Source: Glycocaulis sp.
Lineage (GTDB): Bacteria; Pseudomonadota; Alphaproteobacteria; Caulobacterales; Maricaulaceae
Reading direction: 5' to 3'
Assembly: GCF_051859565.1 (NCBI RefSeq)
Contig: NZ_JBHYFK010000004.1
Span: 271,099 to 335,098 of the forward strand
DNA: 64,000 nucleotides
Of this stretch, positions 39,745 to 58,643 are shown piece after piece (the first letter of the stretch is position 1; the number at the start of each line of letters is the position of its first letter). Below the pieces are notes generated by a model. That model was not told where the DNA came from and ran no database searches. It worked only from the letters and a program-made list of their open reading frames with translations. Made by a program: the position numbers and the translations under genes.

Positions 39745-40299
39745 TCAGCCAGAGCGGCCGAGAGCGAGACAGGTATCCATCCAGTCGGGTTTGAGAGAGA
39801 GGGCGTTGTCGTCCCAGCTGCAGCATTCCAGCAGGAACCAGGGACAGAACTCCCAGTCGAACGAGTCATCATAGCCATTGCCGCCCTTATGGGCAGCGAT
39901 CCAGCCGATATGGCAAGCGCGGGCAATCGCGCCTACCCGATCGCGAACATAGGCCGTGCCATTTATGGAGCGGACAGAATCGGCATGGACCGCGAGACGG
40001 GAGGCAGGTTCGGCTGTGCAGATCGCTTCCCAGAGGCTCATGGCAGAGTCGGTCAGGAGCTCTTCGGAGATCTCACCACAGGCGCGGGCGATATCTTCAT
40101 CGGCCACGTTGTCGATATGGACGGCATGGCCATCAGAGCTAAGCATATAGATGCCCCAGAAATGGGGCGGGATGCCGTCAGGTGGCAGGCCGATACGGCC
40201 TCTGGTTTCGCCTGCGGCCGGCGCGTATTCAAAGCGCGGGCCATATTCGAGCGTGATGTGATCGCGAGACGATACGGGAATGGTGACGGACTAATCCAT
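39745..40299 (-). pseudogene. possible disrupted gene: ATG-GAT-TAG followed by 181 open codons (faint ArdB/KlcA-like resemblance); competes with antisense ORF 39541..40395
   Basis: An SD-like aagga lies 8 nt before the ATG at 40299, and codon 3 is TAG (40293-40291). The frame then stays open to 39745, and the first ATG/GTG/TTG is at 40146. Codon third-position GC is high in the 3' third of this frame. See the findings for the competing plus-strand reading. Confidence 0.35.
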
Positions 40300-40454
40300 G
40301 ACGGGAATCCTTGTTGCTGGAGAAGCATCGCCACGGGTGCGCGCATGGCGGCGCGCCCGTGCGAGCGGGTTCACAAAAGGCTGGGGATGGGATAGATTGA
40401 GGGAGTGGGGATCGAGCTTTCGCCCGACCCCCTAGTCTCTAGAACGTAATGAGA

Positions 40455-41131: not shown

Positions 41132-42208
41132 ATGGGCGACGTACTTCATCCGAGGTTGATCGGACAGATTGCCTCAATTCTTGGCACGATCAGAACGCAC
41201 GGGCTGTTGAGCGAGCGATGGCTGGAGGCGCAGCTCCATGAGGCTATAACCATAAGACGGGCGCGCTTGCCCAACGAGGACCGGGAGGTCGGCGCCCGGC
41301 GCAACTGGCTATCGCGCCTGGTGAGAAAACCCCTTAATGATCGTGGCCATGCGAAGCGCTGTGCCGAAGTCCTCCTGCTCAAGGGTGACGTTTCGTCCGA
41401 TCAGATACGCCGCCACCTGACCGGAAAGCTGGAAAGCAGGACCGCGATCTACGCTATCCGGGACTATCTGATGCGCCACGGCCTCGCATCGCTCGCAGCG
41501 CCACTCGACGCGCTTGGCGATGAAGCCTTCGCCAATCTCATTGATGCCAGCGTTTACCGGTTTGCCTATGGCCGGTTTGGCGAGGTGGAGTTTGATCAGC
41601 AGCTGATATTCGGACAGACGAGCGGCGCGTATGTGATCTACCTTAAAGCGTCGGGCTCAGGTGTTCTGGAGCGTCGGCTGTTGGCCTTCCGCAGTGACCC
41701 GCTCGTCAGCGGTGTTCGGGCCGTCGAGCTTTACAGGGAGAACGGGAAGCTGCGGATGAGGACAGGGCTCATTGCTCCGCGGATCGGCGTTCATTCCGTT
41801 CTCCTGTCAGACGAAATCAGTCCGGCGCTCACCAGAGACCTGCTCAATTCGTTTTCTTCCGATGCCGCCGACAGCTCCATGATCGACGGCGTCCTCGCAG
41901 AGGCCATGCAGAGCCAGGACGGCCGGTCATGGCTGGAAATGCACAGTCTCGCCTTCTACAGTCTGCGCAGCGATAGCTCGAACCGGATCAGTGGGGCTTT
42001 TCTCGATGGAGACAAGTTTGGCGCGATGGTCGGGCGGCGTGTCGAAGGAGACAGGATCACTGGCGGAGAAATCGAAAAGCTGGCCCCTTTGGGGCGAAGC
42101 AGCGAAGCGGATCTGGACCGGGCCGACCGCATACTGATCGACGAGATGCCACGCCTGTCGGTGGATGAGCTGATGCGTGAAGTGGCCACCAGGATAGAAG
42201 CTAGTTGA
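41132..42208 (+). CDS. hypothetical protein (358 aa), no recognisable family
   Basis: Clean ORF with balanced composition, predicted soluble. First gene of a co-directional pair. Confidence 0.6.
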   Translation: MGDVLHPRLIGQIASILGTIRTHGLLSERWLEAQLHEAITIRRARLPNEDREVGARRNWLSRLVRKPLNDRGHAKRCAEVLLLKGDVSSDQIRRHLTGKLESRTAIYAIRDYLMRHGLASLAAPLDALGDEAFANLIDASVYRFAYGRFGEVEFDQQLIFGQTSGAYVIYLKASGSGVLERRLLAFRSDPLVSGVRAVELYRENGKLRMRTGLIAPRIGVHSVLLSDEISPALTRDLLNSFSSDAADSSMIDGVLAEAMQSQDGRSWLEMHSLAFYSLRSDSSNRISGAFLDGDKFGAMVGRRVEGDRITGGEIEKLAPLGRSSEADLDRADRILIDEMPRLSVDELMREVATRIEAS

Positions 42209-42315: not shown

Positions 42316-43707
42316 ATGCGTGCAGTTCGGTGGTTAGCTACGACGCTCGTTGCTCTTGTCGGTTTATGTGCTGGCGCAATTCAGTTGATCGATTTTGCGT
42401 GCCCAAGGTTCGGGGTGGCGTGTTCTCTGTCGAGTAATCCTCCCAGTGTCGAGCGTGTGATCGGCCCGAACGCTCGAAGTGTTGACATACGCCTGACGCG
42501 GGAGCCCGAAACCTTTGCCGGGCTACGTTACCGGATCGCGTCCGGCCTGTTTGGTGGTGAACGCGTTGAGGTGCTTGCCGTATTCGATGACGCCGAATTC
42601 ATCGTTCATTCTGACTCTTTGGACGAACGCCGGTTTGTGCCGGGAGATTCCGACAGTCTTCGAGCCGTAAGCGGAGCGCTTGTGGCAGAACGGGAGGCAG
42701 ATCGCTCGTCGGTAGGCATTCCCGCCCGAATTTTGCTCGTTCTTGCAGATGAGCTGATTGTTCGCCGGCATTTCCTCGTTGAGTTCGCACCCGGCTTACC
42801 TTCGCAGGAAAGTTTCGACATCACCAATGTCAGCTTCTCGGTGGCCGGCCGGCGCCTTTCATTCGACTTGTCGGCCACTGCGCCATCGGTGTTCATTCAG
42901 GGGCGAGAGGTGAGCTTGCAACAGAGCTCCCGAGTCAGTTCAGGCGCGCGATGGGCCGATCGGGTCCAGATCACCCTTACCGACGGGTTCGAGGTCGAAA
43001 GTGTTCAGACAGCGGCGGGCCTCGATCTAATCGCCGAAATTGAGAGCCGTAGCCAACAGTACACAACGTGCCGGGAGGAGAAGCCCGAGCTGTTCCGTGC
43101 CAGCTTCCCAGATTTTGATCGGGGTTTCGTGACATGCTGGAGCTGGGAGCGGTTCTTTCGGACTGATGTCGAGTCTGGTTTTACTGCTCCGGGAACTATT
43201 GTTTACAGTGTTCTCGACGTCCGCCCGGTCCGGGCGGACGTCATGGTTCACCGGGATCACGGCGTTGGTCTAGAGCACACCGGGATATGTTTGGCGAACA
43301 TGGATAGTGACGTGGTGATTGCCACGGGCGCCTCAGGGCAATGGGTAGTCCATGGTTGCCGTTTCGAACGGCAGGCCCGTGCCTCTGAGCGTCAGCCGTA
43401 TACGACGTCAGGCTACAATGTGCATTTCTACTTCCAGAGAGCCGAGTGGGCCGACCCCGTACGACACACCATAACATGTGACTGCAGCACCCTCTGGCTC
43501 AGAGAATTTGTGTTCGACGAAGAGCGGCATGAGCTGCGGTTTTTGGCAGATACAAATGGGACAGAACTGGAAATTGACGGGACGTTGCAAACTACTGGCG
43601 TCACGCCTGCCATGGACGGCAGCAGCGTCGAGGCCCGGATCGAGATCGTCCTGCGCTACGACGGCGCTGGTGTGCGCGATCGGGCCATGATCCGGGCAGG
43701 CGGTTGA
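42316..43707 (+). CDS. hypothetical membrane-anchored protein (463 aa), no recognisable family
   Basis: N-terminal TM (WLATTLVALVGLCAGAIQLI) followed by a beta-rich region of about 430 aa that contains several Cys residues. aggagag lies before the ATG. Confidence 0.6.
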   Translation: MRAVRWLATTLVALVGLCAGAIQLIDFACPRFGVACSLSSNPPSVERVIGPNARSVDIRLTREPETFAGLRYRIASGLFGGERVEVLAVFDDAEFIVHSDSLDERRFVPGDSDSLRAVSGALVAEREADRSSVGIPARILLVLADELIVRRHFLVEFAPGLPSQESFDITNVSFSVAGRRLSFDLSATAPSVFIQGREVSLQQSSRVSSGARWADRVQITLTDGFEVESVQTAAGLDLIAEIESRSQQYTTCREEKPELFRASFPDFDRGFVTCWSWERFFRTDVESGFTAPGTIVYSVLDVRPVRADVMVHRDHGVGLEHTGICLANMDSDVVIATGASGQWVVHGCRFERQARASERQPYTTSGYNVHFYFQRAEWADPVRHTITCDCSTLWLREFVFDEERHELRFLADTNGTELEIDGTLQTTGVTPAMDGSSVEARIEIVLRYDGAGVRDRAMIRAGG

Positions 43708-44006: not shown

Positions 44007-45038
44007 ATGAACATACAAATAATTTCAAGCATTTCCTTGGCCCTGGCTCTGTCTCTAACAGGCTGTGCGCAAAGGGCAGGCGATCTGGACGATCAGCGGC
44101 AGCGAGATGCGGACCTCGCATCGCCTAGCTCTACCGCAAGGGCGTCACTTTCATCTGATCTTGTTGGGTCATTTTCCCGCGGCCCCCATGAACTCCATTT
44201 CAGCGGATTGACGTGCGACGATCATCTGCCCTACGGCGCGCCAGGGGAAGTCTCCGCCCCCGAAGGGGACCGGGTAACGGTGTGCCAGTGGTCCGGTGAC
44301 GGCCAACAGGCCTTTTTCGTCTCGCGCTATGACCGCAGCCGCGTCTCGGCAGACTGGACCGCTTACACCCTGACACGGGACATGATGCTGGCGGTTGCCC
44401 GGAGCGAAATTGTCCGCCGGGAACATGGCGTGGATTTCCAGCCAGACCCGCAGATCGAGACCGAAGCCTTCCGCTCACCCGGGCATCGGAGCTTTACCGG
44501 GATCGGCAATCTCACGCCAGCCCATGACCGTGGTCATCTGGCTGCGGCCGAGCCGTTCAAATGGAGCCTTGAGGGTTATCAGCGCACTTTCATGGTTTCG
44601 AACATCGCAATCCAAGCAGGCTGGTTCAATCAGCAGCTCTGGCAGGATGTCGAGGCGCAGGTGCAGGGCTGGGCCTGCGATCTCGGGACCGTTCATGTCG
44701 TAACCGGGGTGGTGCATGGCCAGGAGCCGCAAACCTTCCCGCTCCGCCAGCGCAATGATGCGAGCCACATACCGGAATATTTCTACATGGCCGTATACAC
44801 ACCGCACGAAGGTGGTCATGCCGTCGGCATACACTTCCCCAATGCCGTTCCGCCAGCTGATGAACGCGATATCCGTCCGGAAGCGGGGGCGATCACCATC
44901 GTTGAACTTGAGGCGTTAACTGGTCTGAACTTCCACCCCCATATGGATCCAGAGCATCAGTTGGCCGTAGAAGCCCTCCCCGTAGCGGAGTCCATTTGGA
45001 GATTTGACTATCCGCGCAACTTCCAGTGCCGCGAATGA
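44007..45038 (+). CDS. DNA/RNA non-specific endonuclease (NucA/Serratia-type beta-beta-alpha-Me), lipoprotein
   Basis: Lipobox ..LALSLTGC. The catalytic motif ..TPAHDRGHLAAAE.. (DRGH) is followed by ..FMVSNIAIQAGWFNQQLWQDVE.. (Asn metal ligand context). ggggaggg precedes the ATG. Confidence 0.87.
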   Translation: MNIQIISSISLALALSLTGCAQRAGDLDDQRQRDADLASPSSTARASLSSDLVGSFSRGPHELHFSGLTCDDHLPYGAPGEVSAPEGDRVTVCQWSGDGQQAFFVSRYDRSRVSADWTAYTLTRDMMLAVARSEIVRREHGVDFQPDPQIETEAFRSPGHRSFTGIGNLTPAHDRGHLAAAEPFKWSLEGYQRTFMVSNIAIQAGWFNQQLWQDVEAQVQGWACDLGTVHVVTGVVHGQEPQTFPLRQRNDASHIPEYFYMAVYTPHEGGHAVGIHFPNAVPPADERDIRPEAGAITIVELEALTGLNFHPHMDPEHQLAVEALPVAESIWRFDYPRNFQCRE

Positions 45039-45755: not shown

Positions 45756-46661
45756 CTAGCCTGGCCACCGGACGTCCACCGCAATCGGACAATGATCCGA
45801 CGGGTGGCGCTCGCGGGGGCCAGAAAAAGTCGTTTCGAAGAACGAGCCATCGACCTTGAAACGGGCAGCCTCTTCGTTGAGCACCAGAAAATCGATGAAC
45901 TCGGCATAGCGCGGATTGCATCGAGGGCTGATCCCGGCGCCGGCAAGGCGCAGCGGTGCGGGGTCGCCGTCATTGAGATCGAGCCAGACGCTATCTCCTT
46001 CGACCTCCAGGCGCCTGTTGAAGTCACCGCCCACGATAACGCCACGGCCAGCGGCGCTGCGTTCATCAATCCAGCTTTCGAGAACCGGGACTTGATCGAA
46101 GAAGACCGGGCAGGCAGATGCGGCATCGCCGCTGAAGCAGCCTGATTTGAGGTGCACGCTCATCAGGTCGAGCGGCGCTTCTCCCGTCAGCGTGATGGCA
46201 ACACCCCAGCGTAGCCGGTCCTGACCTTCGACATCGAGTTCGGTAAGGGCTGGGAGGACAACATGGTCGATCCCGCGGCGCACTGCGATAGCGGTGGACT
46301 GCATGGTCAGGCGCGTGCCGTCGTCGCGGCCCCGGCACAGCGGGTAGTCATCCTGTTCGCCAGCCGGGCGGGCTTCGACGTGAAAAGTCCACTGGGAAGG
46401 ATCGAAGACACGCGCGAGTGCCGCCTCGTTCTCGATCTCCTGCAGGAGCCATATATCAGCGCCGACCTCATCGATAATGGCCGTCACGCGCTGATACCCG
46501 GCATCGTCGCGCGGCGCACACCCCATGCCGTTTTCAGCAGCAAGGTGCTCGATATTCCATGCCGCGATGCGTAGCCCGCCGGGTACAGGGGCCGGCGCAG
46601 ACGACCTCTCGCACGCGGTTACCAGAGCAAGCGCACCCAGCGCCGGAATCATCCATTTCAT
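45756..46661 (-). CDS. endonuclease/exonuclease/phosphatase (EEP) family lipoprotein
   Basis: MKWMIPALGALALVTAC lipobox. EEP motifs WNIEHL, LLQEI, GGDFN and PSDHCP. ggagg precedes the ATG. Confidence 0.87.
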   Translation of the reverse strand: MKWMIPALGALALVTACERSSAPAPVPGGLRIAAWNIEHLAAENGMGCAPRDDAGYQRVTAIIDEVGADIWLLQEIENEAALARVFDPSQWTFHVEARPAGEQDDYPLCRGRDDGTRLTMQSTAIAVRRGIDHVVLPALTELDVEGQDRLRWGVAITLTGEAPLDLMSVHLKSGCFSGDAASACPVFFDQVPVLESWIDERSAAGRGVIVGGDFNRRLEVEGDSVWLDLNDGDPAPLRLAGAGISPRCNPRYAEFIDFLVLNEEAARFKVDGSFFETTFSGPRERHPSDHCPIAVDVRWPG

Positions 46662-46977
46662 CGCGGGGACCTCCATTGATAGTGCAAGTATCGCGTGATC
46701 ACGTCAGGCCCGCTAGGCGCCATCAGCGATAATATGACGTTGCTATCCAGGTTACGGGGGCCTGTTCGCCGGATCTGTTCAATAGGCGTTCTAAACAGGG
46801 GGAGTATGGTCTTGGCCGCTCGCTCCCCCATGAGCGCTAATGTGTTGCCCGCGGACGATGGCGAACTCGGGTGCCGGATGGCGCAGCGCCCACTTACGTA
46901 TCGATCAGAGTGGTGATCGGTCCCAATATTCGCGGTTGCTGCGTGACTACTGCCCTCTGCCTGTTCGAGGACACTGG

Positions 46978-47343
46978 CTAGTATTTCCTGACACCGACCG
47001 GGACCAAAGCCTTGAGCAGGCCCGCCGTAGCATCAAGATGGCGGCGCATGGCGCTGACCAATTTGACATCAGCGGTATATTCGGTGGCAGCCATTTCCGC
47101 CACTTGCACGAACATCGACAACTGAGAAGCCACAGGCTGAACGGGCGGGCGGCGGACTTTTAGAAAAACGATCTTGGTCATGATCTTGTGCAGGACCGCC
47201 TCGGCATCATCCGCGATCGCCAGATAGGCCGCCTTCTCGAGCGGCGTGGCCCCCTTGGACACATCCTGATGCGCCAAGACCCTTAGCTCGACGAGCCGGT
47301 CACGTTCTTCCTCGAGCAGACGGATAGCATCATCTACATCCAT
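46978..47343 (-). CDS. hypothetical helical protein (121 aa)
   Basis: ORF with helical, charged composition. No family recognised. Confidence 0.45.
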   Translation of the reverse strand: MDVDDAIRLLEEERDRLVELRVLAHQDVSKGATPLEKAAYLAIADDAEAVLHKIMTKIVFLKVRRPPVQPVASQLSMFVQVAEMAATEYTADVKLVSAMRRHLDATAGLLKALVPVGVRKY

Positions 47344-47542: not shown

Positions 47543-47962
47543 CTATTTTCCTTTTGCCGGCGCCTCACCCAGAGAGCCAGCCAGTTGCAACAGGTGGCGG
47601 CGGATTTTGCGGTCTTCGATACGATTGAAGGCTTGGGCGAGTTGCACCCCTTCCCGGCTTCCGACGAAGTTTGAGATTGCCGCTGCTTCATCCTCGTTGC
47701 GCTTCAGGGTATCTACCGCCTGGTCAACGTCCTCGTAAAAATAGCCAACGGGCACCTCCAAGGCACGAGCCAGCTCATAAAGCCGACCTGCGCCGATCCG
47801 GTTGACCCCGTTCTCGTATTTCTGAAGCTGCTGGAAGGTAATCCCAACCTTGGCCGCGAGCGCCTGCTGGGAGATCTGCATGACTCGGCGGCGCAGGCGG
47901 ATGCGGATCCCGACATGCCGGTCGATAAGGTTAGGCGTTCGTGGACTGTCTTTAGACGCCAT
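47543..47962 (-). CDS. XRE-family HTH transcriptional regulator (PraR/PhrR-like)
   Basis: ..IRIRLRRRVMQISQQALAAKVGITFQQLQKYENGVNRIGAGRLYELARALEVPVGYFY.. is a canonical HTH_3 domain. Confidence 0.88.
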   Translation of the reverse strand: MASKDSPRTPNLIDRHVGIRIRLRRRVMQISQQALAAKVGITFQQLQKYENGVNRIGAGRLYELARALEVPVGYFYEDVDQAVDTLKRNEDEAAAISNFVGSREGVQLAQAFNRIEDRKIRRHLLQLAGSLGEAPAKGK

Positions 47963-47980
47963 GGCTTTTGTATCCGGTTT

Positions 47981-48424
47981 CTAGACCCGCTCCCGGTCAC
48001 CGTTTTCGATGGCTGGATCACAGGCCGCCAGCTCACCGGTCTGCCGGTGCCTGACGATTATCTGATAGCGGTATGACTTCATGATCTCGCACGCATCTTC
48101 AAGTACGACACTTCTGCGTTCTGGATCACCGAAGCTTACCTCGAAATCATCCGATTGCGGAAATATGGCGATTCCAGGCCAGATTTTCCCGTCCAGCTCG
48201 AACTCGTGGAACTCCCACTCCTCAGCCGCCAGTGCGAAAATGAGCCGTGTCGGATAGGTGATCTGGAAGTCGCCGGAACTGGCTCCGACATAGACTTTAT
48301 GGGCGGTCTGTGCGGCGCCGCCGGCTACTTCCTGATAGGGATAGACCCTTACCAGGATGTGCAGGACGTTGGGGCCTTCATGACCAGCGCCGGTAAAGAT
48401 ATCGGTATCGTTCCTAGCCTTCAT
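47981..48424 (-). CDS. hypothetical soluble protein (147 aa)
   Basis: Its start lies inside the upstream stop region (aATGAAGGCTAG). Beta-rich composition. The C-terminal ..ACDPAIENG.. is reminiscent of small D-P-x-I-x-N proteins, but this is not assignable by eye. Confidence 0.55.
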   Translation of the reverse strand: MKARNDTDIFTGAGHEGPNVLHILVRVYPYQEVAGGAAQTAHKVYVGASSGDFQITYPTRLIFALAAEEWEFHEFELDGKIWPGIAIFPQSDDFEVSFGDPERRSVVLEDACEIMKSYRYQIIVRHRQTGELAACDPAIENGDRERV

Positions 48425-50420
48425 TGTCTGTCCCTTCGGTATTTAGGTTCGACGCGGTCTCTGGAGCCTCGGGACGCGCCCAGAAACTCAGATAGTCGGG
48501 GCGCGCATAGCCCGCTTCTTCAAGCTCTGAGCGGATCGTCATCGCCTGATCACGCTCGCCTGCGAGCCAGTAAACGCGCGATGCCAGATCATTCATGCGC
48601 AGGTCGCCAATCAGATCGACATCGCCGATCAGCGCCATGGCTTCACGCAATACACGCTGCGTCTCAGGCCTTCCCAGCGCGATGAAGGCATCATGGCGTA
48701 GAAGCTGAGCCCTCAGGGCAAGCAGGCGCGCATTGGCGCGGCCCGCTTCCAGCTCGGATGTCAGACCGGCAAGTGCATTGGCCGCGCTGACAGCCGCCTC
48801 ATCATAAGCACCGGCCGCAAGCGCGACCTGACCGGAGAGAATGTCGAAACTGGCATTCTCCAGCACACGGCCGTCATAGCTGCCTTGCGGATCACGGCTT
48901 GCCCGCAGCCGCCGCGCCCGGTCGATCAGCAGCTGGGCGCGGATCAGCGCCGTATCGAATAGCGCCAGTTCGGCCCGGTCACGCTGCACAACCAGTAGCA
49001 GGCGCAGATAGCGCGCATTCTCAGGATCGCGTGCGGTGAGATCTTCCAGAAGCGATGCGGCCTGCTCCAGCGCCGCCGCGGCGCTGGCGGTGTCACCGGT
49101 GTCCACCCTTAGCGCGGCTTCGCCATGCACGGCGCTGGCCAGCCTGAATGCGGTGAGAAGATTGGCCGGTTCCTCGGCCAGCTGTCTGGCAAAAATTTCC
49201 CCCTCATCCCGGCGCGCATCGGCAGCTTCTGCCAGCTGGCCAGCGGCCCTGTAGGCGTCCGCTGTCCAGCCCAGCGCATTTGCCAGCTCGCCTGCATACT
49301 CACCGAACTCACCTTGCAGCGCCTCATAGCCAGCTCTCGCTACGCGAAGATCGTCGAGCGCCAGACCGGCCTCGCCACTCTCCAAGGCCATGACCGCCGC
49401 GTTCAGATGGGCGCTGGCTGCGCGCTGGCGTGCATCACGATTGTCCGGGGTGAGCGCCAGGAGCGCATCGGCATATTCCCGGCTTGTATCGAGCATTGCA
49501 CGCGCTCTTGCCATATCGCCGGCGCGATAGGCAGACACACCGGCTGATGATGTCAGTTCGGCAAAAGCCAGCAGGCTGCCAGCATCTGCCCGCAGGCCGG
49601 GCCCGCCCTCGCCTAGCGCCAGTGCCATTGAAAAGGCCTGCGCAGCACCTGACCGATCACCGGCAAGATCACGCGCCTCGGCAAGCCAGGTCAGCAGCCG
49701 CATTCGTCTGGCCACGTCATCGGGCGTTGGCGCAGGCGGCATGCCGCGTTCAAGGACGGCCTCTCCGGCTGCAATCATCACGCTCTGGCGGGCACTCGCC
49801 TGCAAGGGGGAAGCGATCTCGATCAGCTGGCTGTCCGCAAAGCGGATGGCTTCGGCCTCGGCAGCACGGCTGAGTTGCAGCTCGTTGCCCAGGTGGACGT
49901 TGAAAATTCCAAGCGCCAGGCAGATCGCCACGGCAGCCGTCAGTGCGATAAAAGAGCTGCGCAGATAAAGCCCGCGCCGTGTCCGGGGCACATTTGTGCC
50001 AGCCAAATCCAGAATCTTTTTGCCCACCGCATTGATATCGGCCGGCTCCCGGTCAGGGTAGATGGACCCCGCAAGAAATGGCGGCGGCAGAGACACGAGA
50101 AGCCCGTCCGGTCCGCGGTCGCAGGCGAGAACTGGCGGCAAGGCCGGCTCTTCGCTGCTGCCGCCAAGCTCTACGCGTACCAGGCGTTCGCGCGGCGCGC
50201 TCCGGAGAAATCCGGCAACAGCGCGGCTGACCGCAAGGTCTTCGACAGTCGCTTCCGAATAGCATACGACGAGCCAGCCGGGCACAGGATCGGTCTCCGC
50301 TTTCCAGCCAACGACGACCGGACTGCCCTGGCGCATCAGCCAGGCTGCAAGCCCCCACACGCGGGCACGGTCGCCGTCCGAACAGATCAGCGCGATGACA
50401 GCGGCGTTATTCATGGCCAC
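48414..50420 (-). CDS. single-pass membrane protein: TIR-like/flavodoxin-fold N-domain, TM, about 490-aa TPR-like helical-repeat domain
   Basis: The N-terminal AVIALICSDGDRARVWGLAAWLMRQGSPVVVGW..WLVVCYSE has a beta-alpha-beta pattern like TIR_2-type domains. RTRRG is followed by a TM (SSFIALTAAVAICLALGIFNV, residues about 156-175). An Ala/Leu/Arg-rich repeat region follows. Confidence 0.65.
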   Translation of the reverse strand: MAMNNAAVIALICSDGDRARVWGLAAWLMRQGSPVVVGWKAETDPVPGWLVVCYSEATVEDLAVSRAVAGFLRSAPRERLVRVELGGSSEEPALPPVLACDRGPDGLLVSLPPPFLAGSIYPDREPADINAVGKKILDLAGTNVPRTRRGLYLRSSFIALTAAVAICLALGIFNVHLGNELQLSRAAEAEAIRFADSQLIEIASPLQASARQSVMIAAGEAVLERGMPPAPTPDDVARRMRLLTWLAEARDLAGDRSGAAQAFSMALALGEGGPGLRADAGSLLAFAELTSSAGVSAYRAGDMARARAMLDTSREYADALLALTPDNRDARQRAASAHLNAAVMALESGEAGLALDDLRVARAGYEALQGEFGEYAGELANALGWTADAYRAAGQLAEAADARRDEGEIFARQLAEEPANLLTAFRLASAVHGEAALRVDTGDTASAAAALEQAASLLEDLTARDPENARYLRLLLVVQRDRAELALFDTALIRAQLLIDRARRLRASRDPQGSYDGRVLENASFDILSGQVALAAGAYDEAAVSAANALAGLTSELEAGRANARLLALRAQLLRHDAFIALGRPETQRVLREAMALIGDVDLIGDLRMNDLASRVYWLAGERDQAMTIRSELEEAGYARPDYLSFWARPEAPETASNLNTEGTDNEG

Positions 50421-51093
50421 CCCCTCCGTTGAGAGGGGCTGGTTGCAAGACCGGTTCAGCAGTTACAGCTTTCAACCCGCCTGTGAGCAATTCCCCGGCC
50501 AGATCCGTCAGATGAGAGGCCAGGGCCGATCGTTGCCCGGCTGAAAGCGGCGCTGCAGCGTACAGCAACTCAGCATAAGCAATATCGAGCTCACGAATGG
50601 AGCCAGGGTCAACCGGCACAAATGAGGTGATCGGCACACTCAAAATGCGCGCAATCTCCACCGCTTCAGGAAAGCTCGGATCGGCGCCATCATAAATCTG
50701 CATGAGGCGGGCAAGTCCCAGAAACTCAATCAGCTCCTGCTCCGCAGCGAGACCGCGATGGGATGCAATAAGCTGAATGCTCGCCCCGAAACTGGGTAAC
50801 GAGAATTTTCTGGTCGCCTCGTCGCCCCCTCCGGCCAAATCCCCAACCCGGTCAGCTGCCCCTAGAGAATCAATCATTTGTAGTAATTCACTTTTTACGC
50901 AACCCCCTACTGCCGCAATGCTACTTATACGTATAATTTCTGCGCTTACAACTACCGCGTAAATCGCATTACGGCGTCGATTGCAAACTCCTGCCAACAC
51001 CACTGCTCGGGGCTCACGGATAGCAGCCAAAGTGGCGCACTCGATGACAACCATTGAGGTCGGCCAGCGATAATTGCGTGATAACATCAGCAC
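50407..51093 (-). CDS. HTH (XRE-like) domain protein; true start probably Met73 (50877)
   Basis: ..IQLIASHRGLAAEQELIEFLGLARLMQIYDGADPSFPEAVEIARILSVPITSFV.. fits the HTH_3 pattern. The first 72 codons lie in the AT-rich cassette and look non-coding. The stop overlaps the next gene's start. Confidence 0.55.
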   Translation of the reverse strand: MLMLSRNYRWPTSMVVIECATLAAIREPRAVVLAGVCNRRRNAIYAVVVSAEIIRISSIAAVGGCVKSELLQMIDSLGAADRVGDLAGGGDEATRKFSLPSFGASIQLIASHRGLAAEQELIEFLGLARLMQIYDGADPSFPEAVEIARILSVPITSFVPVDPGSIRELDIAYAELLYAAAPLSAGQRSALASHLTDLAGELLTGGLKAVTAEPVLQPAPLNGGGGHE

Positions 51094-51143: not shown

Positions 51144-51665
51144 TCAATTTACTAAAAGGACCGAAAATATAACCGCCACTAAATTTGACCCGAAGTGCAT
51201 AATGCTTAAACAAAAAATACTTTCTAAAAAATTATATTGAACCCGGTAATGCAAATAACACAAGGCGTACAAACCAAATGCCATGGCCGCTGATGTTGAG
51301 TGCACGAACCCATCGTGCATCAGGAACGCCACACACGGAACAACTATAATCGCAGCAAAAATGCGAAGGGCCTTATTAAATCTAAAAATTTCAATAATTA
51401 GTATTATAGCAGCCGACTCAACAATTGGGGCAAAAACCAATACAACAAATAGGCCGCCGCCGCCCCAAAGAAACGCCGAAAAATTAAATTGTATCAAAAA
51501 CTGTATTGCTGGTGCGAACAAAAACAACGATATAGCTGTTGTTAAAAGCTTTATTGCCGCGCCCAGAGAAATTATCTTCACCACAAAAAGTAGAAAACTT
51601 TTTTCTCTACGCAGAATAGAAGATGCCACTAACGTGGCATCTTCTGAACGGTCAAACCTAAGCAC
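51144..51665 (-). CDS. CPBP (CAAX/Abi)-like intramembrane protease family protein; candidate immunity protein
   Basis: Polytopic and AT-rich. The motifs are APIVES..EIFR (degenerate EExxxR), FLMH (FxxH; the classical second motif is FxxxH) and MHFGSNL (HxxxN). It lies immediately downstream of the double-glycine (GG) leader peptide gene. Confidence 0.5.
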   Translation of the reverse strand: MLRFDRSEDATLVASSILRREKSFLLFVVKIISLGAAIKLLTTAISLFLFAPAIQFLIQFNFSAFLWGGGGLFVVLVFAPIVESAAIILIIEIFRFNKALRIFAAIIVVPCVAFLMHDGFVHSTSAAMAFGLYALCYLHYRVQYNFLESIFCLSIMHFGSNLVAVIFSVLLVN

Positions 51666-51858
51666 TTCGAAGAGCCCTATCCTCAGACACGGACAGCTGT
51701 GGCCCTGCGTCCACTTGCCTGTTCATCCAATCGATAATTTCTCCGAGTTTCGAAGTGAAAGGAAGGTTCGCTTCATTACCAAAATCTTGCCAATTTTCGA
51801 ACCATGGGAATGCTCCACCGGAAACCAGAGCGACTTCATCAGCTTGAAGGGTTTTCAT
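51658..51858 (-). CDS. double-glycine-leader peptide precursor (bacteriocin/microcin- or pheromone-type), 66 aa
   Basis: The leader MKTLQADEVALVSGG has M(-15), L(-12), E(-8), V(-7), V(-4) and GG(-2,-1), matching the LSxxELxxIxGG consensus. ggaga lies about 8 nt before the ATG. A C39-ABC exporter and HlyD are encoded nearby. Confidence 0.7.
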   Translation of the reverse strand: MKTLQADEVALVSGGAFPWFENWQDFGNEANLPFTSKLGEIIDWMNRQVDAGPQLSVSEDRALRSA

Positions 51859-52020: not shown

Positions 52021-53250
52021 TCACGCACGCACCGCCATCACTGGATCGATAAACCATCGCCATAACGGGCGCCGGTCCACGATCACGTCGGCCATCACGG
52101 TCATACCGGCTTGCAAAGGGCGCTCGTCGCCATAGGCCGCCAATGCCTGTTGCCCAAGCTCCACCCGGAGCCGATATACCGGCTGGCTTACCGGAATAGG
52201 GCCGGCAACTTCGATTGGTGACAAGGCCGATGTCGAAATCTCGATCACATGCCCGCTCAGCGTACCAAAGCGCTGATAGTTGAAGGCATCGACGCGCAAG
52301 CGCACGTCCTGGCCGTTGGCGATGAAGCCCGCAGCACTCGTCGGCACCAGAAGATAGCCCTGGAGGACCTGGCCTTCGGGGAGTATGGCGGCTAGGGGTT
52401 GGTCCGGGCGCACCGTAGCACCCAGTTGGGCCTGTATGGCTGTGATCTGCCCGCTCACCGGAGCGCTGAGCACATAGCCGGCGGCGCGGTCCAACTCCTG
52501 GCGAGCCTGTGAGAGGGCAGCCGCTTCACTACGCAGCCGCGACAGAGCGATATCATGGTCCAAAGGAAGTTGTTCGAGGGCATGCTGGACTTCGCGCCGT
52601 TCGCTGCGCCGCTGGATGGTCAGCGCGTCGATATCCTCTTTCGATGTAAGCGCCGCCAAATAGCCCTGCCTGCGTTGATCGACATCAGCGCGCGGAGCAA
52701 AGCCGCGATCAGCGAGATCTCGCCAGCGGGCAAGCTGCGCCTCGGCGACTTCAACACTCTCGCTTGCAAGGGCGGCGCGGACCGTAAGACGGTCCAGTTC
52801 CGAGGCGAGTGAAATCAGACGCGCTTGCAGCCTTTCTTGCTGCTGGCTGAATTGTTGTGTCTGGGCTTCACGCTGCAACCGCAGTTCGCTGATCCGGCTT
52901 TCAATCTCAGCGCGCTGAGACGACGCTGAGCCACCCTCGGCCCCGAAAAGCTCGGTGCTCAGCCGGATGACCGGATCACCCGCCGAAACCGTTTGGCCTT
53001 CCTCGACGAATAGCTCTGCCACCACACCGCCGCCAACAGGGGTGATCGTAGCAATACCGCCCTCGGGCGCCAGATAGCCAACAACCGTTTCCTTGCGGGA
53101 GAACTCTGCAAAAATCACAAAGATTGCCACGCCGAACGTGATGGCGCTAAAGGCTAGCGTCATCACAGCCAGTATCCGTGGCTGCACAATCACCGCCTCG
53201 CCCATGCCTGTGTCGGATCTGGCTTCAAGAACTTCCCGCCGAAAAAGCAT
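52021..53250 (-). CDS. HlyD/CvaA-family membrane fusion (secretion) protein
   Basis: MLFRREVLEARSDTGMGEAVIVQP.. is followed by a TM, a lipoyl-like hairpin (GGVVAELFVEEGQTVSAGDPVIRL) and a long coiled coil. Confidence 0.9.
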   Translation of the reverse strand: MLFRREVLEARSDTGMGEAVIVQPRILAVMTLAFSAITFGVAIFVIFAEFSRKETVVGYLAPEGGIATITPVGGGVVAELFVEEGQTVSAGDPVIRLSTELFGAEGGSASSQRAEIESRISELRLQREAQTQQFSQQQERLQARLISLASELDRLTVRAALASESVEVAEAQLARWRDLADRGFAPRADVDQRRQGYLAALTSKEDIDALTIQRRSERREVQHALEQLPLDHDIALSRLRSEAAALSQARQELDRAAGYVLSAPVSGQITAIQAQLGATVRPDQPLAAILPEGQVLQGYLLVPTSAAGFIANGQDVRLRVDAFNYQRFGTLSGHVIEISTSALSPIEVAGPIPVSQPVYRLRVELGQQALAAYGDERPLQAGMTVMADVIVDRRPLWRWFIDPVMAVRA

Positions 53251-53333: not shown

Positions 53334-55445
53334 ATGATTGAAGAACTGTTCCATCGCGGACGGATACCAACGATTCTCCAGTCGGAAGCCTCTGAATGCG
53401 GGCTGGCCTGCCTGGCCATGGTGGCATCCCGGCATGGGCGCAGGACTAATCTTGCAGAACTGCGGGCAAAACTATCGCTGTCGTTAAAGGGCATGACGCT
53501 GCAGGGGCTCATGCAGGCAGCAGACGGTATGGGGTTCTCCTGCAGGGCCGTGCGGTGCGAGCTGGAGGAACTCGGTCAGCTCCGTCTGCCAGCGATCCTT
53601 CACTGGGATATGAACCATTTTGTGGTGCTGGCCTCGGTAAAGCGCGGACAGGCGGTTATCCATGACCCGGCACGGGGCCAGCGCGAGCTCTCTCTTGCTG
53701 AAGTGTCAAAGAGCTTTACCGGCGTTGCCCTGGAGCTGACCCCAACGCCGTTTTTCGAAACCAAGCGTACCGTTGCCACGCTCAAGCTGGGCGATTTCTG
53801 GTCACGCATCCGCGGGCTTTCGGGCAGTCTCTGGCAGCTCTTTTTCCTGTCACTCTTGCTTCAGCTCTTCGTGATCGTGGGGCCGCTGGTCAATCAGATC
53901 GTCGTCGATGAAGCGATTACCAAAGCCGATCTTGATCTTCTCAATACCGTGATCATCGGCTTCCTGATCCTAACACTCCTGCAGGTAGCCATAACGGCCA
54001 TACGCGGCTTTGTTGCCATGTATCTGGGCAATCTTATGACCTTCCAGATGCAGGCCAATCTGCTGCGGCATCTCATGCGCCTGCCGGCTGACTTTTTCGA
54101 AAAGCGCCATGTGGGCGCCATCGTTACACGCTTCCGCTCCATCGAGCCGATCCAGAACCTGATCACATCGGGAGTCATCGGGGCGGCGCTCGACGGGTTG
54201 ATGGCCATTGGCACGCTCATCTTCATGTTCTTCTATGCGCCAACGCTCACCCTAGTCGTGCTGGGTTTTCTCGCGCTGTACTTCATCGCGCGCTTTGCAA
54301 GCTTTCCCTATGTGCGACGTATGACTGAGGAACAGATCCAGACCTCGGCAGACGTTCAGTCGCATTTTCTGGAAACAATCCGCTCGATCCGCCCGGTCAA
54401 ACTCTTCGGCCGGGAAGAGCAACGCCATAATCGATGGCAGAACCTGTTTGCCACCAACCTGAACATCGGCATCCGGCTGGAACGGTTTGGAATCTGGTCC
54501 GGCTCCGGTCATGCGTTGTTATCAGGTGCGCAGACACTTATCGTTCTTTATCTCGGAGCACGCGCGGTCATCGCCGGAGACATGACACTCGGCATGCTGT
54601 TCGCATTCCAGTCCTACAGATCGTCGTTTACTGGCGCTGCGATCGGACTGGTGAACACGCTCTTTTCATGGCGGCTTGTCGGCCTCCATCTTGAACGCCT
54701 GGCCGACATTGCGCAGACCGAACCCGAAGAGCCGCAGGAAAAGCTTCCCTCCCTGCCCCAGAAGCTTCAAGGAGCAATCAGCGTACAAAATCTGCGTTTC
54801 CGGTATGGCGACCATGAGCCGTGGGTTATCGACGGTATCAACCTTGATATTGCGCCAGGTGAGAAGGTCGCCATCGTGGGCCGGTCGGGTGGGGGCAAGT
54901 CCACTCTGATGAAACTGCTTCTTGGTCTATATACCGCGCAAGAGGGCAGCATCGGCTACGATGGCCGCAATCTTGTTCATCTGGGACGGCGTGCGGTGCG
55001 CGCACAAATTGGTGTGGTGATGCAGGATGACCGCCTGCTCTCGGGTACGTTAGCGGAGAACATTTCCTTTTTCGACACAGCATTGGATATGCGCCATGTA
55101 GAGTGGTGCGCAAAGGCTGCAGCCATTCACGATGAGATCACCGCCATGCCCATGGGCTATCTCAGCCTTGTAGGCGATATGGGCTCGGCGCTGTCAGGCG
55201 GGCAGATACAGCGTATCCTCCTAGCCCGCGCGCTCTATAACAGGCCTTCGATCCTCATGCTGGATGAAGGCACGGCCAATCTCGACAAGCAGAGCGAGGA
55301 ACGGATTACACAGGCCCTTGCGCGAATCCCCGTCACGCAAATCATCATTGCCCATCGGCCACAGGCGATAGCGTATGTCGATCGGGTAATGGAGATGTCT
55401 GATGGACAACTTCGAGCGTCGGGCTCAGAGCAAACGGCCCAATAA
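53334..55445 (+). CDS. peptidase C39 domain-containing ABC transporter (bacteriocin/microcin exporter, CvaB/ComA-like)
   Basis: N-terminal ..IPTILQSEASECGLACLAMVASRHG.. is the C39 catalytic Cys context. Six TM segments. Walker A GRSGGGKST, signature LSGGQIQR and Walker B ILMLDEGT. Confidence 0.95.
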   Translation: MIEELFHRGRIPTILQSEASECGLACLAMVASRHGRRTNLAELRAKLSLSLKGMTLQGLMQAADGMGFSCRAVRCELEELGQLRLPAILHWDMNHFVVLASVKRGQAVIHDPARGQRELSLAEVSKSFTGVALELTPTPFFETKRTVATLKLGDFWSRIRGLSGSLWQLFFLSLLLQLFVIVGPLVNQIVVDEAITKADLDLLNTVIIGFLILTLLQVAITAIRGFVAMYLGNLMTFQMQANLLRHLMRLPADFFEKRHVGAIVTRFRSIEPIQNLITSGVIGAALDGLMAIGTLIFMFFYAPTLTLVVLGFLALYFIARFASFPYVRRMTEEQIQTSADVQSHFLETIRSIRPVKLFGREEQRHNRWQNLFATNLNIGIRLERFGIWSGSGHALLSGAQTLIVLYLGARAVIAGDMTLGMLFAFQSYRSSFTGAAIGLVNTLFSWRLVGLHLERLADIAQTEPEEPQEKLPSLPQKLQGAISVQNLRFRYGDHEPWVIDGINLDIAPGEKVAIVGRSGGGKSTLMKLLLGLYTAQEGSIGYDGRNLVHLGRRAVRAQIGVVMQDDRLLSGTLAENISFFDTALDMRHVEWCAKAAAIHDEITAMPMGYLSLVGDMGSALSGGQIQRILLARALYNRPSILMLDEGTANLDKQSEERITQALARIPVTQIIIAHRPQAIAYVDRVMEMSDGQLRASGSEQTAQ

Positions 55446-56269: not shown

Positions 56270-58504
56270 CTAGCCGGAATAATAGCTGCGGTAATTCTTG
56301 TAGTAGTAGGACGAGCCTTCGTAGCCATAACGGGCCTGCGCATCCATATCGACCTGCGCGAGTGTGACCCCCAGGACATTAGCTCTCACATCGCCCAGAA
56401 TATCGAGCGCGCTCCTGGCAGCTTCACGCGGGGTGGTCTTCCATTTGACGTTCATGATGACCGCATCGGCGCGCGCGGCGATGACGCGGGTATCGGTCAC
56501 GGCCAGAACAGGCGCTGTATCGATTAGCACCAGATCATAACGCTTCCGCAGACTGGCGAGGAGCGATCTGAAGGCATCGGAGCTGAAAACATCGCGCGGT
56601 GTGTACTGCGACTCCACGACGGGGAGAATATGCAGACCACGCTCGGCGTCCTCGGTCAGGACGTCCTCCAGCGAACACTCCCCGGCAAGCACCTCCAGCA
56701 GGCCTCTGGATGCGCCTGGCACGGCCGCCTTGGTCAGCAGGCGCCGGCGCAAATCACAATCGAGGATGATCGTAGTGGAGCCTGCCATGGCCGATATCCG
56801 GCCCAGCGAATAGGTCGTGGTCGTTTTGCCCTCGCCGGGCAGAGCCGAGGTGATGGCCACCACTTTATGGACCTCATCGATATTGGACAGGAGTATGGCC
56901 GAGCGGATGACACGGAACGCTTCAGCGATCCCTGACAACGGGTTCTCGCGAATATAGTCGAAAGGCTGGCTGCCGGCCGGCAATTTGCCTTGTCCGAAGC
57001 GCCCGCGTGCGAGCATCGGGACAGAGGCGATATGCCCGGTGCCCAGTTCGCGTTCGACATCGGCTTCAGTACGCACGCCGTTATCAAAGGTCTCGAGCAG
57101 GAAGACGGCCCCTACCCCCATCATGCCGCCCAGGACCAGGCCAAGGGCCAGATTGAGCAGCCAGTTGGGCGAACTGGCTTCCAGGGGTATGGCGGCGCGC
57201 GCGACGATGCGGGCATCGGCCGTTGCCAGCTCGTCCTGCTCGCTGGTCTGACGGAAGCGGTTGAGGAAGGACTCAAAGAGTGTGCGTGAGGCCTGGGCCT
57301 CACGCTCCAGTTCACGCAGGCGCACCAGAGCCCGGTTATTGGTAATCAGCTCGGTCCTGAACCCGGAGAGCGTGTTCTGCAAGGACGCCACGCGCTGGCG
57401 CGCGACATTCACCTCGGTTTCCAGCCCTGCGATAATGCGCTGTATCTCCCGGTCAATCTGCTCTTCCAGATCAGCCACTTCACGTTCGACGGCCAGGAAT
57501 TCGGGGTGGCGCGGGCCATAGCGCGAGGAAAGATCGCTCCGGCGCCGGCTGGTCTCGGTCTGCTGGGCGCGCAAGGCCCGGATCGTTTGCGAGCGCAGCA
57601 CCTCCCCGATCGTATCAAGCGATGCGCCGCGCTGGAGCTGGGTCTGGACACTGCGCAGGGAGGATTCCGCTGCCGACAGCTCGGCGCGCTGAATGGCCAG
57701 CTGGGCATTGAGATCCGCGATCTGCTGCTCGGTCAGATTACTCCCGCCCGCATCGAGAAGGCCCTGTTCGGCGCGATACATTTCCACGGCCTGCTCGGCG
57801 GTACGGACCTCTTCGCGCAGGACTTCCAGGCGCTGATTGAGCCAGGTATTGGCCCGCTCGGTCGCATCGAACCTGGCTTCAAGCTGGGAGAGCAGATAGA
57901 GGTCAGCAAAGGCATTGGCGATGCGCGCTGCCTTCGCCGGATCTTCAGAGGCAAAACTGATACCAATGACGTAAGTCAGCCCCGACCGGCGCGCCGTCAG
58001 CCGGCCAATGACCGTATCGGTTACCCGTTCAAGAGCCGGGTCTTCATCACTGCCATCGCCGGCGGGGACGATCTGAGAGGGCAAAAGTGCCGTGACAAAG
58101 CCTCGCACACCCGCGATCACACCGCCCAGGCCAGAGGGCTCACGAAGCGCGCTATTGAACTCAGGATCGGAGACAAGATCGAGGGAACGCACAACACTCT
58201 GGGTCAGGGACCGGCTCTGAATGAGCTGAACCTCGGTATCGATGGCCGCCGCGTCCGATCCCACCCCGCTCAGGACCGCTTCCATATCGATAATCTGTGA
58301 ACGGCGCTGATCGATGATGACGCTCGCGGTGGCGGTATATTGCGGCGTCATCTGCATGGTGACGATGATGACCAGCGCAAAGACGGCAAAGGCCACTGCG
58401 ATGAGCACCGGCAATCGCCGGCGGAAAATGCGGGCCAGATGACGCAGATCGATCAGATCGTCACTGCCTGCCGCTTTACCCCTGCCAGGATCTGCCTGCA
58501 CCAT
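56270..58504 (-). CDS. polysaccharide biosynthesis tyrosine autokinase (Wzc/ExoP-like)
   Basis: GumC/Wzz N-domain with two TM segments and a coiled coil. C-terminal kinase with Walker A SALPGEGKTTTT. Tyr-cluster tail YGYEGSSYYYKNYRSYYSG. Confidence 0.92.
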   Translation of the reverse strand: MVQADPGRGKAAGSDDLIDLRHLARIFRRRLPVLIAVAFAVFALVIIVTMQMTPQYTATASVIIDQRRSQIIDMEAVLSGVGSDAAAIDTEVQLIQSRSLTQSVVRSLDLVSDPEFNSALREPSGLGGVIAGVRGFVTALLPSQIVPAGDGSDEDPALERVTDTVIGRLTARRSGLTYVIGISFASEDPAKAARIANAFADLYLLSQLEARFDATERANTWLNQRLEVLREEVRTAEQAVEMYRAEQGLLDAGGSNLTEQQIADLNAQLAIQRAELSAAESSLRSVQTQLQRGASLDTIGEVLRSQTIRALRAQQTETSRRRSDLSSRYGPRHPEFLAVEREVADLEEQIDREIQRIIAGLETEVNVARQRVASLQNTLSGFRTELITNNRALVRLRELEREAQASRTLFESFLNRFRQTSEQDELATADARIVARAAIPLEASSPNWLLNLALGLVLGGMMGVGAVFLLETFDNGVRTEADVERELGTGHIASVPMLARGRFGQGKLPAGSQPFDYIRENPLSGIAEAFRVIRSAILLSNIDEVHKVVAITSALPGEGKTTTTYSLGRISAMAGSTTIILDCDLRRRLLTKAAVPGASRGLLEVLAGECSLEDVLTEDAERGLHILPVVESQYTPRDVFSSDAFRSLLASLRKRYDLVLIDTAPVLAVTDTRVIAARADAVIMNVKWKTTPREAARSALDILGDVRANVLGVTLAQVDMDAQARYGYEGSSYYYKNYRSYYSG

Positions 58505-58643
58505 ATCCGTCTCTACCTCTTAAAATACCTGACGCGCCCGGCTGGCACCCGCCCATGATAAACCGCTACAGGCTCCTATTATAAAAAGGAGCCTGTCCGC
58601 GATAGCCAGAGCTTGCAAAAGGGGACCCAGAGCCATTCAGCGC

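Follow-up and report, generated by a model that had tools for sequence, protein, structure and literature searches.

Membrane-bound regulators of the ToxR/CadC type carry a cytoplasmic OmpR-type winged helix, a single transmembrane helix and a large extracytoplasmic sensor on one polypeptide, and the RRNPP families (Rap, NprR, PlcR and PrgX) combine XRE-type helix-turn-helix (HTH) domains with cytoplasmic TPR repeats and a short secreted pro-peptide. Bacterial TIR proteins include members of the TIR_2 family, BtpA/TcpB, ThsB and TIR-STING, while SO1698 of Shewanella oneidensis is a small stand-alone β-sandwich. Here we analyse a 64,000-nucleotide (nt) stretch of Glycocaulis sp. DNA (contig NZ_JBHYFK010000004.1, positions 271,099 to 335,098), referred to as the window, and within it a minus-strand cassette of four genes encoding an HTH-like protein (gene 1), a large membrane protein with TIR-like and TPR-like regions, a small protein of 147 amino acids (aa) and an XRE-family regulator (gene 4). 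The cassette most resembles a split ToxR/CadC-type membrane-bound regulator whose components, among them a TIR-like domain and a DP-EP-like partner, are unusual. We tentatively interpret it, with somewhat less than even confidence, as a membrane-anchored sensing and regulation module whose obligatory core is the bitopic large protein together with its small partner.

The large protein resembles ToxR and CadC in its predicted layout of a cytoplasmic N-terminal domain, one transmembrane helix and a large extracytoplasmic sensor, and in one lineage (loci L009-L011) an HTH-like domain is fused directly to the transmembrane-TPR body. The layout of HTH-like domain, membrane helix and TPR-like region on one polypeptide is confined to those loci; in the window, the HTH-like protein, with putative DNA binding, is the product of a separate gene and the membrane protein is TIR-like instead. 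Moreover, the HTH-like fold here is weakly XRE-like rather than OmpR-type, and ToxR/CadC systems have no DP-EP-like partner. With the RRNPP families the cassette shares XRE-type HTH domains and TPR-like repeats, and its co-encoded small protein could in principle yield a peptide. Unlike in those families, the HTH and TPR-like parts belong to different proteins, the TPR-like region is anchored in the membrane with a predicted periplasmic location, and the small protein is a folded β-sandwich without a secretion signal. No sequence similarity to RRNPP families was found in the cassette proteins by Pfam, NCBIfam or PDB profile searches.

The N-terminal domain of the large protein shares its fold and a TIR_2-like pattern with bacterial TIR proteins. 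It differs from them in being tethered to a transmembrane helix and a predicted periplasmic TPR-like solenoid, in apparently lacking a conserved catalytic glutamate and in being swapped for an HTH-like domain in one lineage, and PADLOC found no ThsA, STING, SAVED or other known TIR-system partner among the cassette proteins. The first-pass annotation of this DNA knew of no described system combining these parts, and our searches agree: PADLOC, Pfam, NCBIfam and PHROGs miss genes 1-3, and the combination did not turn up in a full-text search of the literature. In the control scan of the cassette, made with PADLOC-DB v2, genes 1-3 gave no match and the XRE gene gave generic HTH matches alone (RmrA, HTH_VI and capH). 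The cassette does not class with TIR NADases, with RRNPP, with Thoeris or other defence systems or, at the sequence level, with DP-EP.

The DP-EP family (PF08985), which we take to be the former DUF1888, contains a self-cleaving fold whose natural role, to our knowledge, has never been explained; likewise, we know of no described transmembrane-TPR partner or biological role for SO1698. DP-EP belongs to a cupredoxin-like clan (PMC9038741), and SO1698 is the structurally characterised DUF1888 protein (reference quoted in PMC11655445). The depositors of SO1698 labelled it an aspartic peptidase, and the titles of its mutant entries (S114A, P115A, D116A, P117A and Q118A) place its site at residues 114-118. 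According to Osipiuk et al. in 2012, SO1698 reportedly cleaves itself between Asp116 and Pro117, and the cleaved C-terminal fragment is said to stay bound to the protein. The small cassette protein is like SO1698 in being a small stand-alone β-sandwich with an Asp-Pro pair about 10 residues from the C-terminus; it is unlike SO1698 in being about 20 aa longer, and its family's similarity to DP-EP falls below the Pfam threshold (17 versus 25 bits).

Organization and conservation of the cassette

All four minus-strand open reading frames (ORFs) of the first-pass annotation were found at 50407-51093, 48414-50420, 47981-48424 and 47543-47962, and the operon structure it described was borne out when the junctions were read directly in the sequence. 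The TAA stop codon of gene 1 overlaps the start of the large gene by 14 nt if translation begins at GTG 50420, or by 8 nt (ATGAATAA) if it begins at ATG 50414, and a GGAGG lies upstream. The originally given length of 668 aa holds for the GTG; from the ATG, the product has 666 aa, as does an identical Glycocaulis sp. protein at NCBI (P0001). Downstream, there is an 11-nt overlap between the TAG stop codon of the large gene and the ATG of the 147-aa gene, and the ATG of the XRE gene occurs 18 nt past the stop of the 147-aa gene. Scanning found no outstanding sigma-70 consensus promoter or terminator inside the cassette.

Compared with G. alkaliphilus and G. albus, all four genes show ratios of nonsynonymous to synonymous substitution (dN/dS) of 0.07-0.29, indicating purifying selection on each and, therefore, that they are real genes. 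The ratio is 0.23-0.29 for gene 1, 0.15-0.17 for the large gene and 0.13-0.19 for the XRE gene, with the strongest constraint of the cassette on the small gene (0.07-0.10).

We fetched 24 loci and searched them by tblastn with the four window proteins; the order of the large and small genes was scored in the 23 loci holding that sequence. In 23 of 23, the small gene comes directly after the large one, and at every locus read their coding regions either abut or share 4-14 nt. Four collinear genes were found in about nine lineages, down to 24-47% identity, with identity to the window falling to 37% (gene 1), 24% (large), 42% (small) and 33% (XRE): in Glycocaulis (the window, L001, L003-L006 and L022), in Robiginitomaculum (L007 and L008) and in unplaced metagenomic sequences (L002, L013/14, L017 and L019). 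What remains of the loci cut short by contig ends (L018, L020/21 and L024) fits the same order. Wherever the four genes occur, the XRE gene immediately follows the small gene. The same order in about nine divergent lineages, together with purifying selection, places the arrangement far beyond chance. At L017, a second XRE-family gene stands right after the usual one (3780-4229 and 4298-4702), and a small resolvase gene lies upstream.

The four-gene unit originally described stands as a recurrent arrangement, but the conserved unit is the large and small pair rather than all four genes. This pair is the obligatory unit, and the two HTH genes are frequent accessories that are gained or lost together, since Oceanicaulis and loci L009-L011 keep the pair without them. 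In Oceanicaulis spp. the two-gene form (L012 3565-6453, L015 3553-6450 and L016 1800-4697) has no HTH genes and occupies a fixed site after tRNA-Leu(CAA) and before convergent cydDC-like ABC transporter genes and cytochrome bd oxidase genes, with no recognisable mobile genes around it. More than 100 contigs carry its small protein, WP_022700344.1, whose record describes a multispecies protein of Oceanicaulis; this suggests that the pair is inherited vertically in the genus. The second two-gene form, in a metagenome-assembled genome (MAG) lineage (L009-L011), has tRNA-Gly as its neighbour and a radical-SAM gene after it.

The flanks of the cassette differ from lineage to lineage and include integrase, AlpA and primase genes, a ParB_N gene with a serine recombinase, IS21, insertion sequence (IS) fragments, HigBA and a resolvase, which marks the four-gene form as movable cargo. 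The family is rare. Among 5.8 billion clusters, the large protein has only 10 full-length relatives, and the small protein has 17 in the cluster search; an exhaustive HMMER search of 1.84 billion representatives with the small-protein profile returned 25 clusters, of which 2 are spurious (about 23 true). The spurious matches, to a 3281-aa cadherin-repeat protein and a 369-aa repeat protein, are multi-domain and were set aside after a Pfam scan. All taxonomically placed members are marine alphaproteobacteria of Maricaulales type (Glycocaulis, Oceanicaulis and Robiginitomaculum). Megablast of the region against plasmids gave no match, and no relative of the small protein was found in plasmids or phages by tblastn, in an IMG/VR scan or in a BFVD fold search. 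The idea that the cassette is phage or plasmid cargo was dropped because these mobile-element and viral searches were negative.

Architecture of the large membrane protein

The large gene (48414-50414, minus strand) encodes a bitopic membrane protein of 666 aa, a core component of the cassette, that is 100% identical to an NCBI hypothetical protein from Glycocaulis sp. It comprises an N-terminal TIR-like domain with a flavodoxin-like βαβ arrangement (residues 1 to ~100; 50115-50414), predicted to be cytoplasmic, a single predicted transmembrane helix (FIALTAAVAICLALGIFNV; residues 155-173; 49896-49952) and, towards the C-terminus, about 480 aa of helical, TPR-like repeats (48417-49862), all on the minus strand. 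This architecture had been proposed in the first-pass annotation and is corroborated by the structural matches to TIR domains, by weak TIR_2 and TPR matches in relatives and by conservation of the membrane segment.

We modelled the N-terminal domain with AlphaFold2 (AF2) from nine sequences. The model has a mean predicted local distance difference test score (pLDDT) of 71, rising to 79-89 in the core, and forms a βαβ sandwich with strands at residues 9-13, 35-37, 49-54 and 80-84 and helices at residues 15-30 and 62-74. In a Foldseek search of the PDB, the top four matches are TIR entries of TIRAP and TcpB, with BtpA, TIR-STING and RPS4/RRS1 below them; SPARTA is also among the structural matches. 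The TIR matches have E-values of 1e-3 to 1e-2 and TM-scores of 0.5-0.67, so the AF2 and Foldseek results agree with the TIR/flavodoxin-like fold that had been suggested. At the sequence level, matches to TIR_2 (PF13676) were observed below threshold in three of eight divergent N-terminal domains, the best with an E-value of 0.005; the window protein has no TIR_2 match, and no member reaches the curated Pfam threshold. A profile search of PDB sequences with the N-terminal domain found no TIR, and the same search with the full-length alignment returned nothing significant. In the family pattern, x-x-D comes after a hydrophobic strand A, strand C reads h-h-V-L-C-S and a P-x-L motif comes after strand D; we read this pattern as typical of TIR_2.

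Between strands C and D, the expected site of the glutamate of NADase TIR domains, the family alignments contain no invariant acidic residue. E60 is replaced by Q in P0010, the motif that follows is V-S-R-A, and E78, within the sequence APRE, is lost in the wider family. Because no acidic residue is conserved after strand C, we suggest that the domain is a non-enzymatic scaffold rather than an NADase.

The membrane segment of the window protein reaches a Kyte-Doolittle maximum of 2.41 over 19 residues, and an equivalent single hydrophobic segment occurs at the same position in all seven family members examined. Counts of Lys and Arg on its N-terminal and C-terminal sides are 4/1, 2/3, 4/3, 4/2, 3/0, 2/0 and 2/1, giving an N-side excess in six of the seven; the exception is L002 (2 versus 3). 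The one membrane segment with a positive N-side that had been noted in the window protein is therefore a family feature, and the charge bias predicts an orientation with the N-terminus inside and the C-terminus outside. By this topology, the TPR-like region would be periplasmic. A conserved GY-x-R-x-D/E-F-x-x-FW motif stands at its end. In Pfam, the window protein has sub-threshold matches alone (Fis1_TPR_C, E-value 0.08), and its relatives match TPR_2 (5e-6), TPR_6, TPR_16 and TPR_1; the region also weakly resembles the TPR arrays of the Trans_reg_C/STAND proteins P0011 and P0012.

In the variant at L009-L011 (L009 261-2147), a domain homologous to gene 1 takes the place of the TIR-like domain, producing an HTH-like/transmembrane/TPR protein whose gene is still overlapped by that of the small protein. 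This N-terminal domain aligns with gene 1 in hhalign at 84% probability (E-value 7.5e-6). By this fusion, gene 1 is tied in function to the cytoplasmic side of the large protein.

The small protein resembles SO1698

The second core component, the 147-aa protein (47981-48424, minus strand), is a cupredoxin-like β-sandwich and the product of the most conserved gene of the cassette. Its AF2 model, built from 18 sequences, has a pLDDT of 80.8 and an all-β sandwich fold. In a Foldseek search of the PDB, the top 12 matches are all SO1698 (E-values 3.4e-5 to 3.7e-4, TMt 0.55-0.66) and the next has an E-value of 0.05, leaving SO1698 (PDB 3N55 and the mutant series 3NJF-3NJN) as the sole significant structural match. 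The 'small beta-rich partner' of the first-pass annotation is thus indeed a β-sandwich, and can be refined to a cupredoxin-like, SO1698/DP-EP-related protein with a conserved Asp-Pro pair. A copper-binding cupredoxin was considered and rejected, as the protein has no conserved His/Cys/His/Met ligand set.

At the sequence level, the window protein has no DP-EP match even at an E-value of 10 or below; P0015, which is 80% identical to it, matches PF08985 with an E-value of 0.0077 and 17 bits, against a cutoff of 25, in a collinear alignment of residues 50-141 with profile positions 29-118 of 120. PDB sequence searches with the small-protein profile missed SO1698 and returned nothing significant. 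Among the 1.84 billion representatives, the profile found nothing outside its own family at an E-value of 1e-3 or below, and the nine weakest HMMER matches gave no DP-EP match on scanning. From the SO1698 fold match, the collinear sub-threshold DP-EP match and the conserved Asp-Pro, we assign the small protein to the DP-EP superfamily as a remote, SO1698-like member, for which self-cleavage is plausible by analogy.

The candidate autoproteolytic site is Asp136-Pro137, encoded at 48014-48019 on the minus strand (coordinates checked by translation) and located 10 residues from the C-terminus. Judging from the collinear Pfam alignment, it probably corresponds to Asp116-Pro117 of SO1698. In the family alignment of 18 sequences, Pro137 never varies, Asp136 is kept at a level of at least 90%, and His22 is another conserved residue of the protein; in a wider alignment of the window protein with 20 representatives, D-P is found in 17 of 21 rows, and three others have G-P or R-P. 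Cleavage at this position would free an 11-residue tail, PAIENGDRERV. The segment past the Asp-Pro varies between lineages and is conserved within them, and many distant tails are low-complexity sequences rich in Gly and Pro. By our reading of the sequence, the small protein has no signal peptide.

The HTH-like protein and the XRE regulator

Gene 1 is shorter than originally annotated. Its maximal ORF extends to GTG 51093 and encodes 228 aa, whereas its homologues have 126-169 aa and the shared region aligns from about residue 100 of that ORF. GC content at third codon positions (GC3) is 0.43 in the 5' extension and 0.55 in the core, compared with 0.55-0.67 across the four genes, and DNA conservation among three Glycocaulis species reaches up to ATG 50877 and decays upstream. 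On the strength of homologue lengths, extension GC3 and conservation ending at this ATG, gene 1 probably corresponds to 50407-50877 (minus strand, 156 aa), the 5' extension being non-coding, and the 228-aa version was rejected. The 156-aa protein has a divergent XRE-like HTH core and a conserved C-terminal helical extension. A PDB profile search matched XRE HTH domains alone (C.BclI and ComR) with weak E-values of 0.4-1.3, and hhalign placed gene 1 in register with the gene-4 family at 23-52% probability; the XRE-like assignment of the original description is therefore weak. Gene 1 has no Pfam, NCBIfam, PADLOC or PHROGs match.

The last gene (47543-47962, minus strand) encodes a 139-aa XRE-family regulator with a C-terminal helical extension. 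As first annotated, it is canonical: it matches HTH_3 (PF01381) at 46.1 bits against a cutoff of 23 (E-value 4.9e-12), and NCBIfam and PHROGs regulator matches agree.

Directly before ATG 50877 is a conserved segment (50878-50925, minus strand) that we regard as a candidate promoter or leader of the cassette. Some 30-40 nt ending at this ATG (GGGTTGCGTaAAaAgTgAaTTACTACAAATG) are conserved in the window, G. albus and G. alkaliphilus, with divergence further upstream. A promoter role for the segment is our own suggestion, and a sigma-70 consensus scan found no promoter within it.

A model for the cassette

In the sensing and regulation module that we tentatively favour, the TPR-like solenoid would receive an envelope or extracellular cue, and the TIR-like domain would serve as a non-enzymatic docking or oligomerisation platform rather than as an NADase. 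The HTH-like product of gene 1 would be a cytoplasmic client of this platform, whose release or capture would alter transcription jointly with the XRE regulator. The 147-aa protein would act as a cytoplasmic partner, and its Asp-Pro may self-cleave as in SO1698, providing a maturation step or a switch. We base this reading on the strict core pair, the recurrent accessory HTH genes and the domain swap; on a TIR-like fold without a catalytic signature and a conserved membrane segment with a charge bias; and on the SO1698-like partner and the fact that nothing points to phage or defence.

Several observations weigh against this model. The TIR assignment is at the level of fold alone, with receiver and flavodoxin domains scoring nearly as well in Foldseek, and the missing catalytic glutamate was judged on alignment patterns rather than on superposition. 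Gene 1 has no recognition-helix motif of the XRE family and its HTH assignment is weak, and no operator-like inverted repeat or palindrome was found upstream of gene 1, nor downstream of the XRE gene, the absence upstream being the one that counts here. The Asp of the Asp-Pro is replaced in three of 20 distant representatives. Furthermore, the small protein looks cytoplasmic, and all that the variants of the large protein have in common, the membrane segment and TPR-like region, is predicted to be largely periplasmic. Lastly, Oceanicaulis keeps the TIR-like domain without gene 1, and docking of gene 1 cannot therefore be its sole purpose.

If the sensing and regulation model holds, the cassette would give the DP-EP/SO1698 fold its first genomic and functional context, with dedicated regulators and an obligatory membrane partner to which it is coupled in translation. 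It would also provide a TIR-like domain from bacteria whose probable role is that of a scaffold on a transmembrane sensor, with a bearing on how TIR domains were used before NADase-based immunity arose or outside it. As a unit, the cassette is coherent, under strong conservation and open to experimental test. It is also tractable, being small, clonable as two or four genes and available in natural TIR-like and HTH-like swap variants through which its wiring can be tested directly. Its reach is limited by the rarity of the family, with about 23 representative clusters among 1.84 billion.

A role as an undescribed anti-phage or abortive-infection system, the defence function raised in the first-pass annotation, seems to us rather unlikely. 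The TPR-like region or the small protein would then sense infection, the XRE proteins would keep the cassette repressed until needed, and the TIR-like domain would oligomerise to cause NAD+ depletion, production of a signalling nucleotide or membrane damage. Such a role would suit the variable mobile contexts (the tRNA-Ser/integrase island of the window as well as the integrase/AlpA/primase, serine recombinase, IS21, IS-fragment and HigBA flanks elsewhere), the patchy and rare distribution and the presence of TIR-STING, SPARTA and BtpA among the structural matches; control by XRE regulators is, moreover, common in defence cassettes. We found no positive evidence for it, however: PADLOC matched neither genes 1-3 nor the nine other island ORFs scanned, and about ten neighbourhoods hold no annotated defence gene. 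The TIR-like domain, with no conserved acidic residue at the expected catalytic position, can be replaced by an HTH-like domain, and in Oceanicaulis the pair has a fixed place in the chromosome of many genomes and is not island cargo. A periplasmic sensor would also be an odd fit for intracellular phage components.

Two further possibilities turn on the Asp-Pro pair. In the first, which we consider improbable, it would make the small protein a protease-free switch that cleaves itself in the manner of SO1698, and the TIR-like/transmembrane/TPR protein would read the cleavage state or the tail of about 11 residues. This would be a previously unknown signalling or immune trigger, in which autoproteolysis of a cupredoxin-like protein, and not a kinase, a protease or a nucleotide second messenger, would couple the cue to TIR-like assembly and HTH output. 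In the second, about as improbable, self-cleavage at Asp136-Pro137 would free an 11-residue peptide that is exported and read by the periplasmic TPR-like receptor, with output through the HTH proteins; this would amount to peptide quorum sensing in a Gram-negative version that uses a membrane receptor. Peptide binding is typical of TPR domains, and the SO1698-like fold, an Asp-Pro conserved 10 residues from the C-terminus, a tail that differs between lineages while being kept within them, and a C39-ABC exporter with HlyD nearby in the window and in G. albus would all fit a peptide signal. Nevertheless, the small protein lacks a signal peptide and a conserved exporter, the ABC/HlyD genes being absent at most loci; many distant tails are of the Gly/Pro-rich kind; and the β-sandwich is the most constrained part of the cassette, which would be unusual for a mere pro-peptide carrier. 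The SO1698 fragment, as noted above, is said to stay bound.

A mobile-element maintenance or regulatory cassette, that is, an addiction or exclusion module or a switch governing excision or transfer of the island in which the HTH proteins would form a repressor/antirepressor pair, is equally improbable. In its favour, recombinases, transposases and a ParB_N protein recur beside the cassette, two HTH genes (and an extra XRE gene in L017) are present and the two-gene forms directly adjoin tRNA genes, well-known targets of integration. Against it, the adjoining mobile genes differ per lineage, which marks the cassette as cargo rather than the core of one element, no relatives turned up in plasmid, phage or IMG/VR collections, and the Oceanicaulis pair persists without recognisable mobile genes around it.

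Genomic neighbourhood

The cassette lies within an island of about 20 kb that starts at a tRNA-Ser gene (35947-36037, plus strand), which is followed by a tyrosine recombinase with DUF6538 and Phage_integrase domains (36166-37431, plus strand). GC content drops from ~63-66% to 55-60% over roughly 38-56 kb, with a 42% trough at 51-52 kb, and no att-like direct repeat marking the far end was found. The placement rests on the tRNA-Ser and integrase, the GC dip and the polysaccharide-export genes from 56270, and supports the island context recognised in the first-pass annotation. A polysaccharide biosynthesis and export cluster occupies 56270-63772 and encodes a Wzz/GNVR tyrosine-kinase-type protein, a BBP2_2 porin, a Wzy_C protein and a Poly_export/SLBB Wza-like protein; it appears to mark the return to the core genome past the island. 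Three sizeable island ORFs, at 39541-40395, 41132-42208 and 42316-43707, have no Pfam or PADLOC match.

Immediately upstream of the cassette is a bacteriocin-type cluster. On the minus strand it comprises a 66-aa peptide with a textbook double-glycine leader (MKTLQADEVALVSGG, then AFPWF...; 51658-51858), a 173-aa multi-transmembrane protein that is immunity-protein-like, has no family match and resides in the 42% GC patch (51144-51665), and an AprE/HlyD-type adaptor ORF (52021-53250), the last predicted from its G. albus counterpart at L003, which has Beta-barrel_AprE and BSH Pfam matches. A putative bacteriocin-type ABC exporter ORF follows on the plus strand (53334-55445); its G. albus counterpart matches Peptidase_C39, ABC_membrane and ABC_tran. 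The exporter pair is also near the G. albus cassette (L003) and absent at most other loci. The bacteriocin genes were considered as members of the cassette and rejected on the same ground, their absence from most loci.

The island also encodes two predicted lipoprotein nucleases or phosphatases, both predicted to be exported, just downstream of the cassette: an Endonuclease_NS nuclease (44007-45038, plus strand) with the lipobox LTGC and an Exo_endo_phos (EEP) enzyme (45756-46676, minus strand) with the lipobox VTAC. An Endonuclease_NS gene also comes after the cassette in the unrelated locus L017 (4699-5685, minus strand), and the EEP gene recurs in G. albus (L003 11995-12897, minus strand). 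This recurrence may reflect a loose association or coincidence. About 200 nt past the XRE gene, and on the same strand, is a 121-aa ORF (46978-47343, minus strand) without a family match, whose GC3 of 0.69 is coding-like; at the equivalent place, G. albus has a different ORF of 176 aa.

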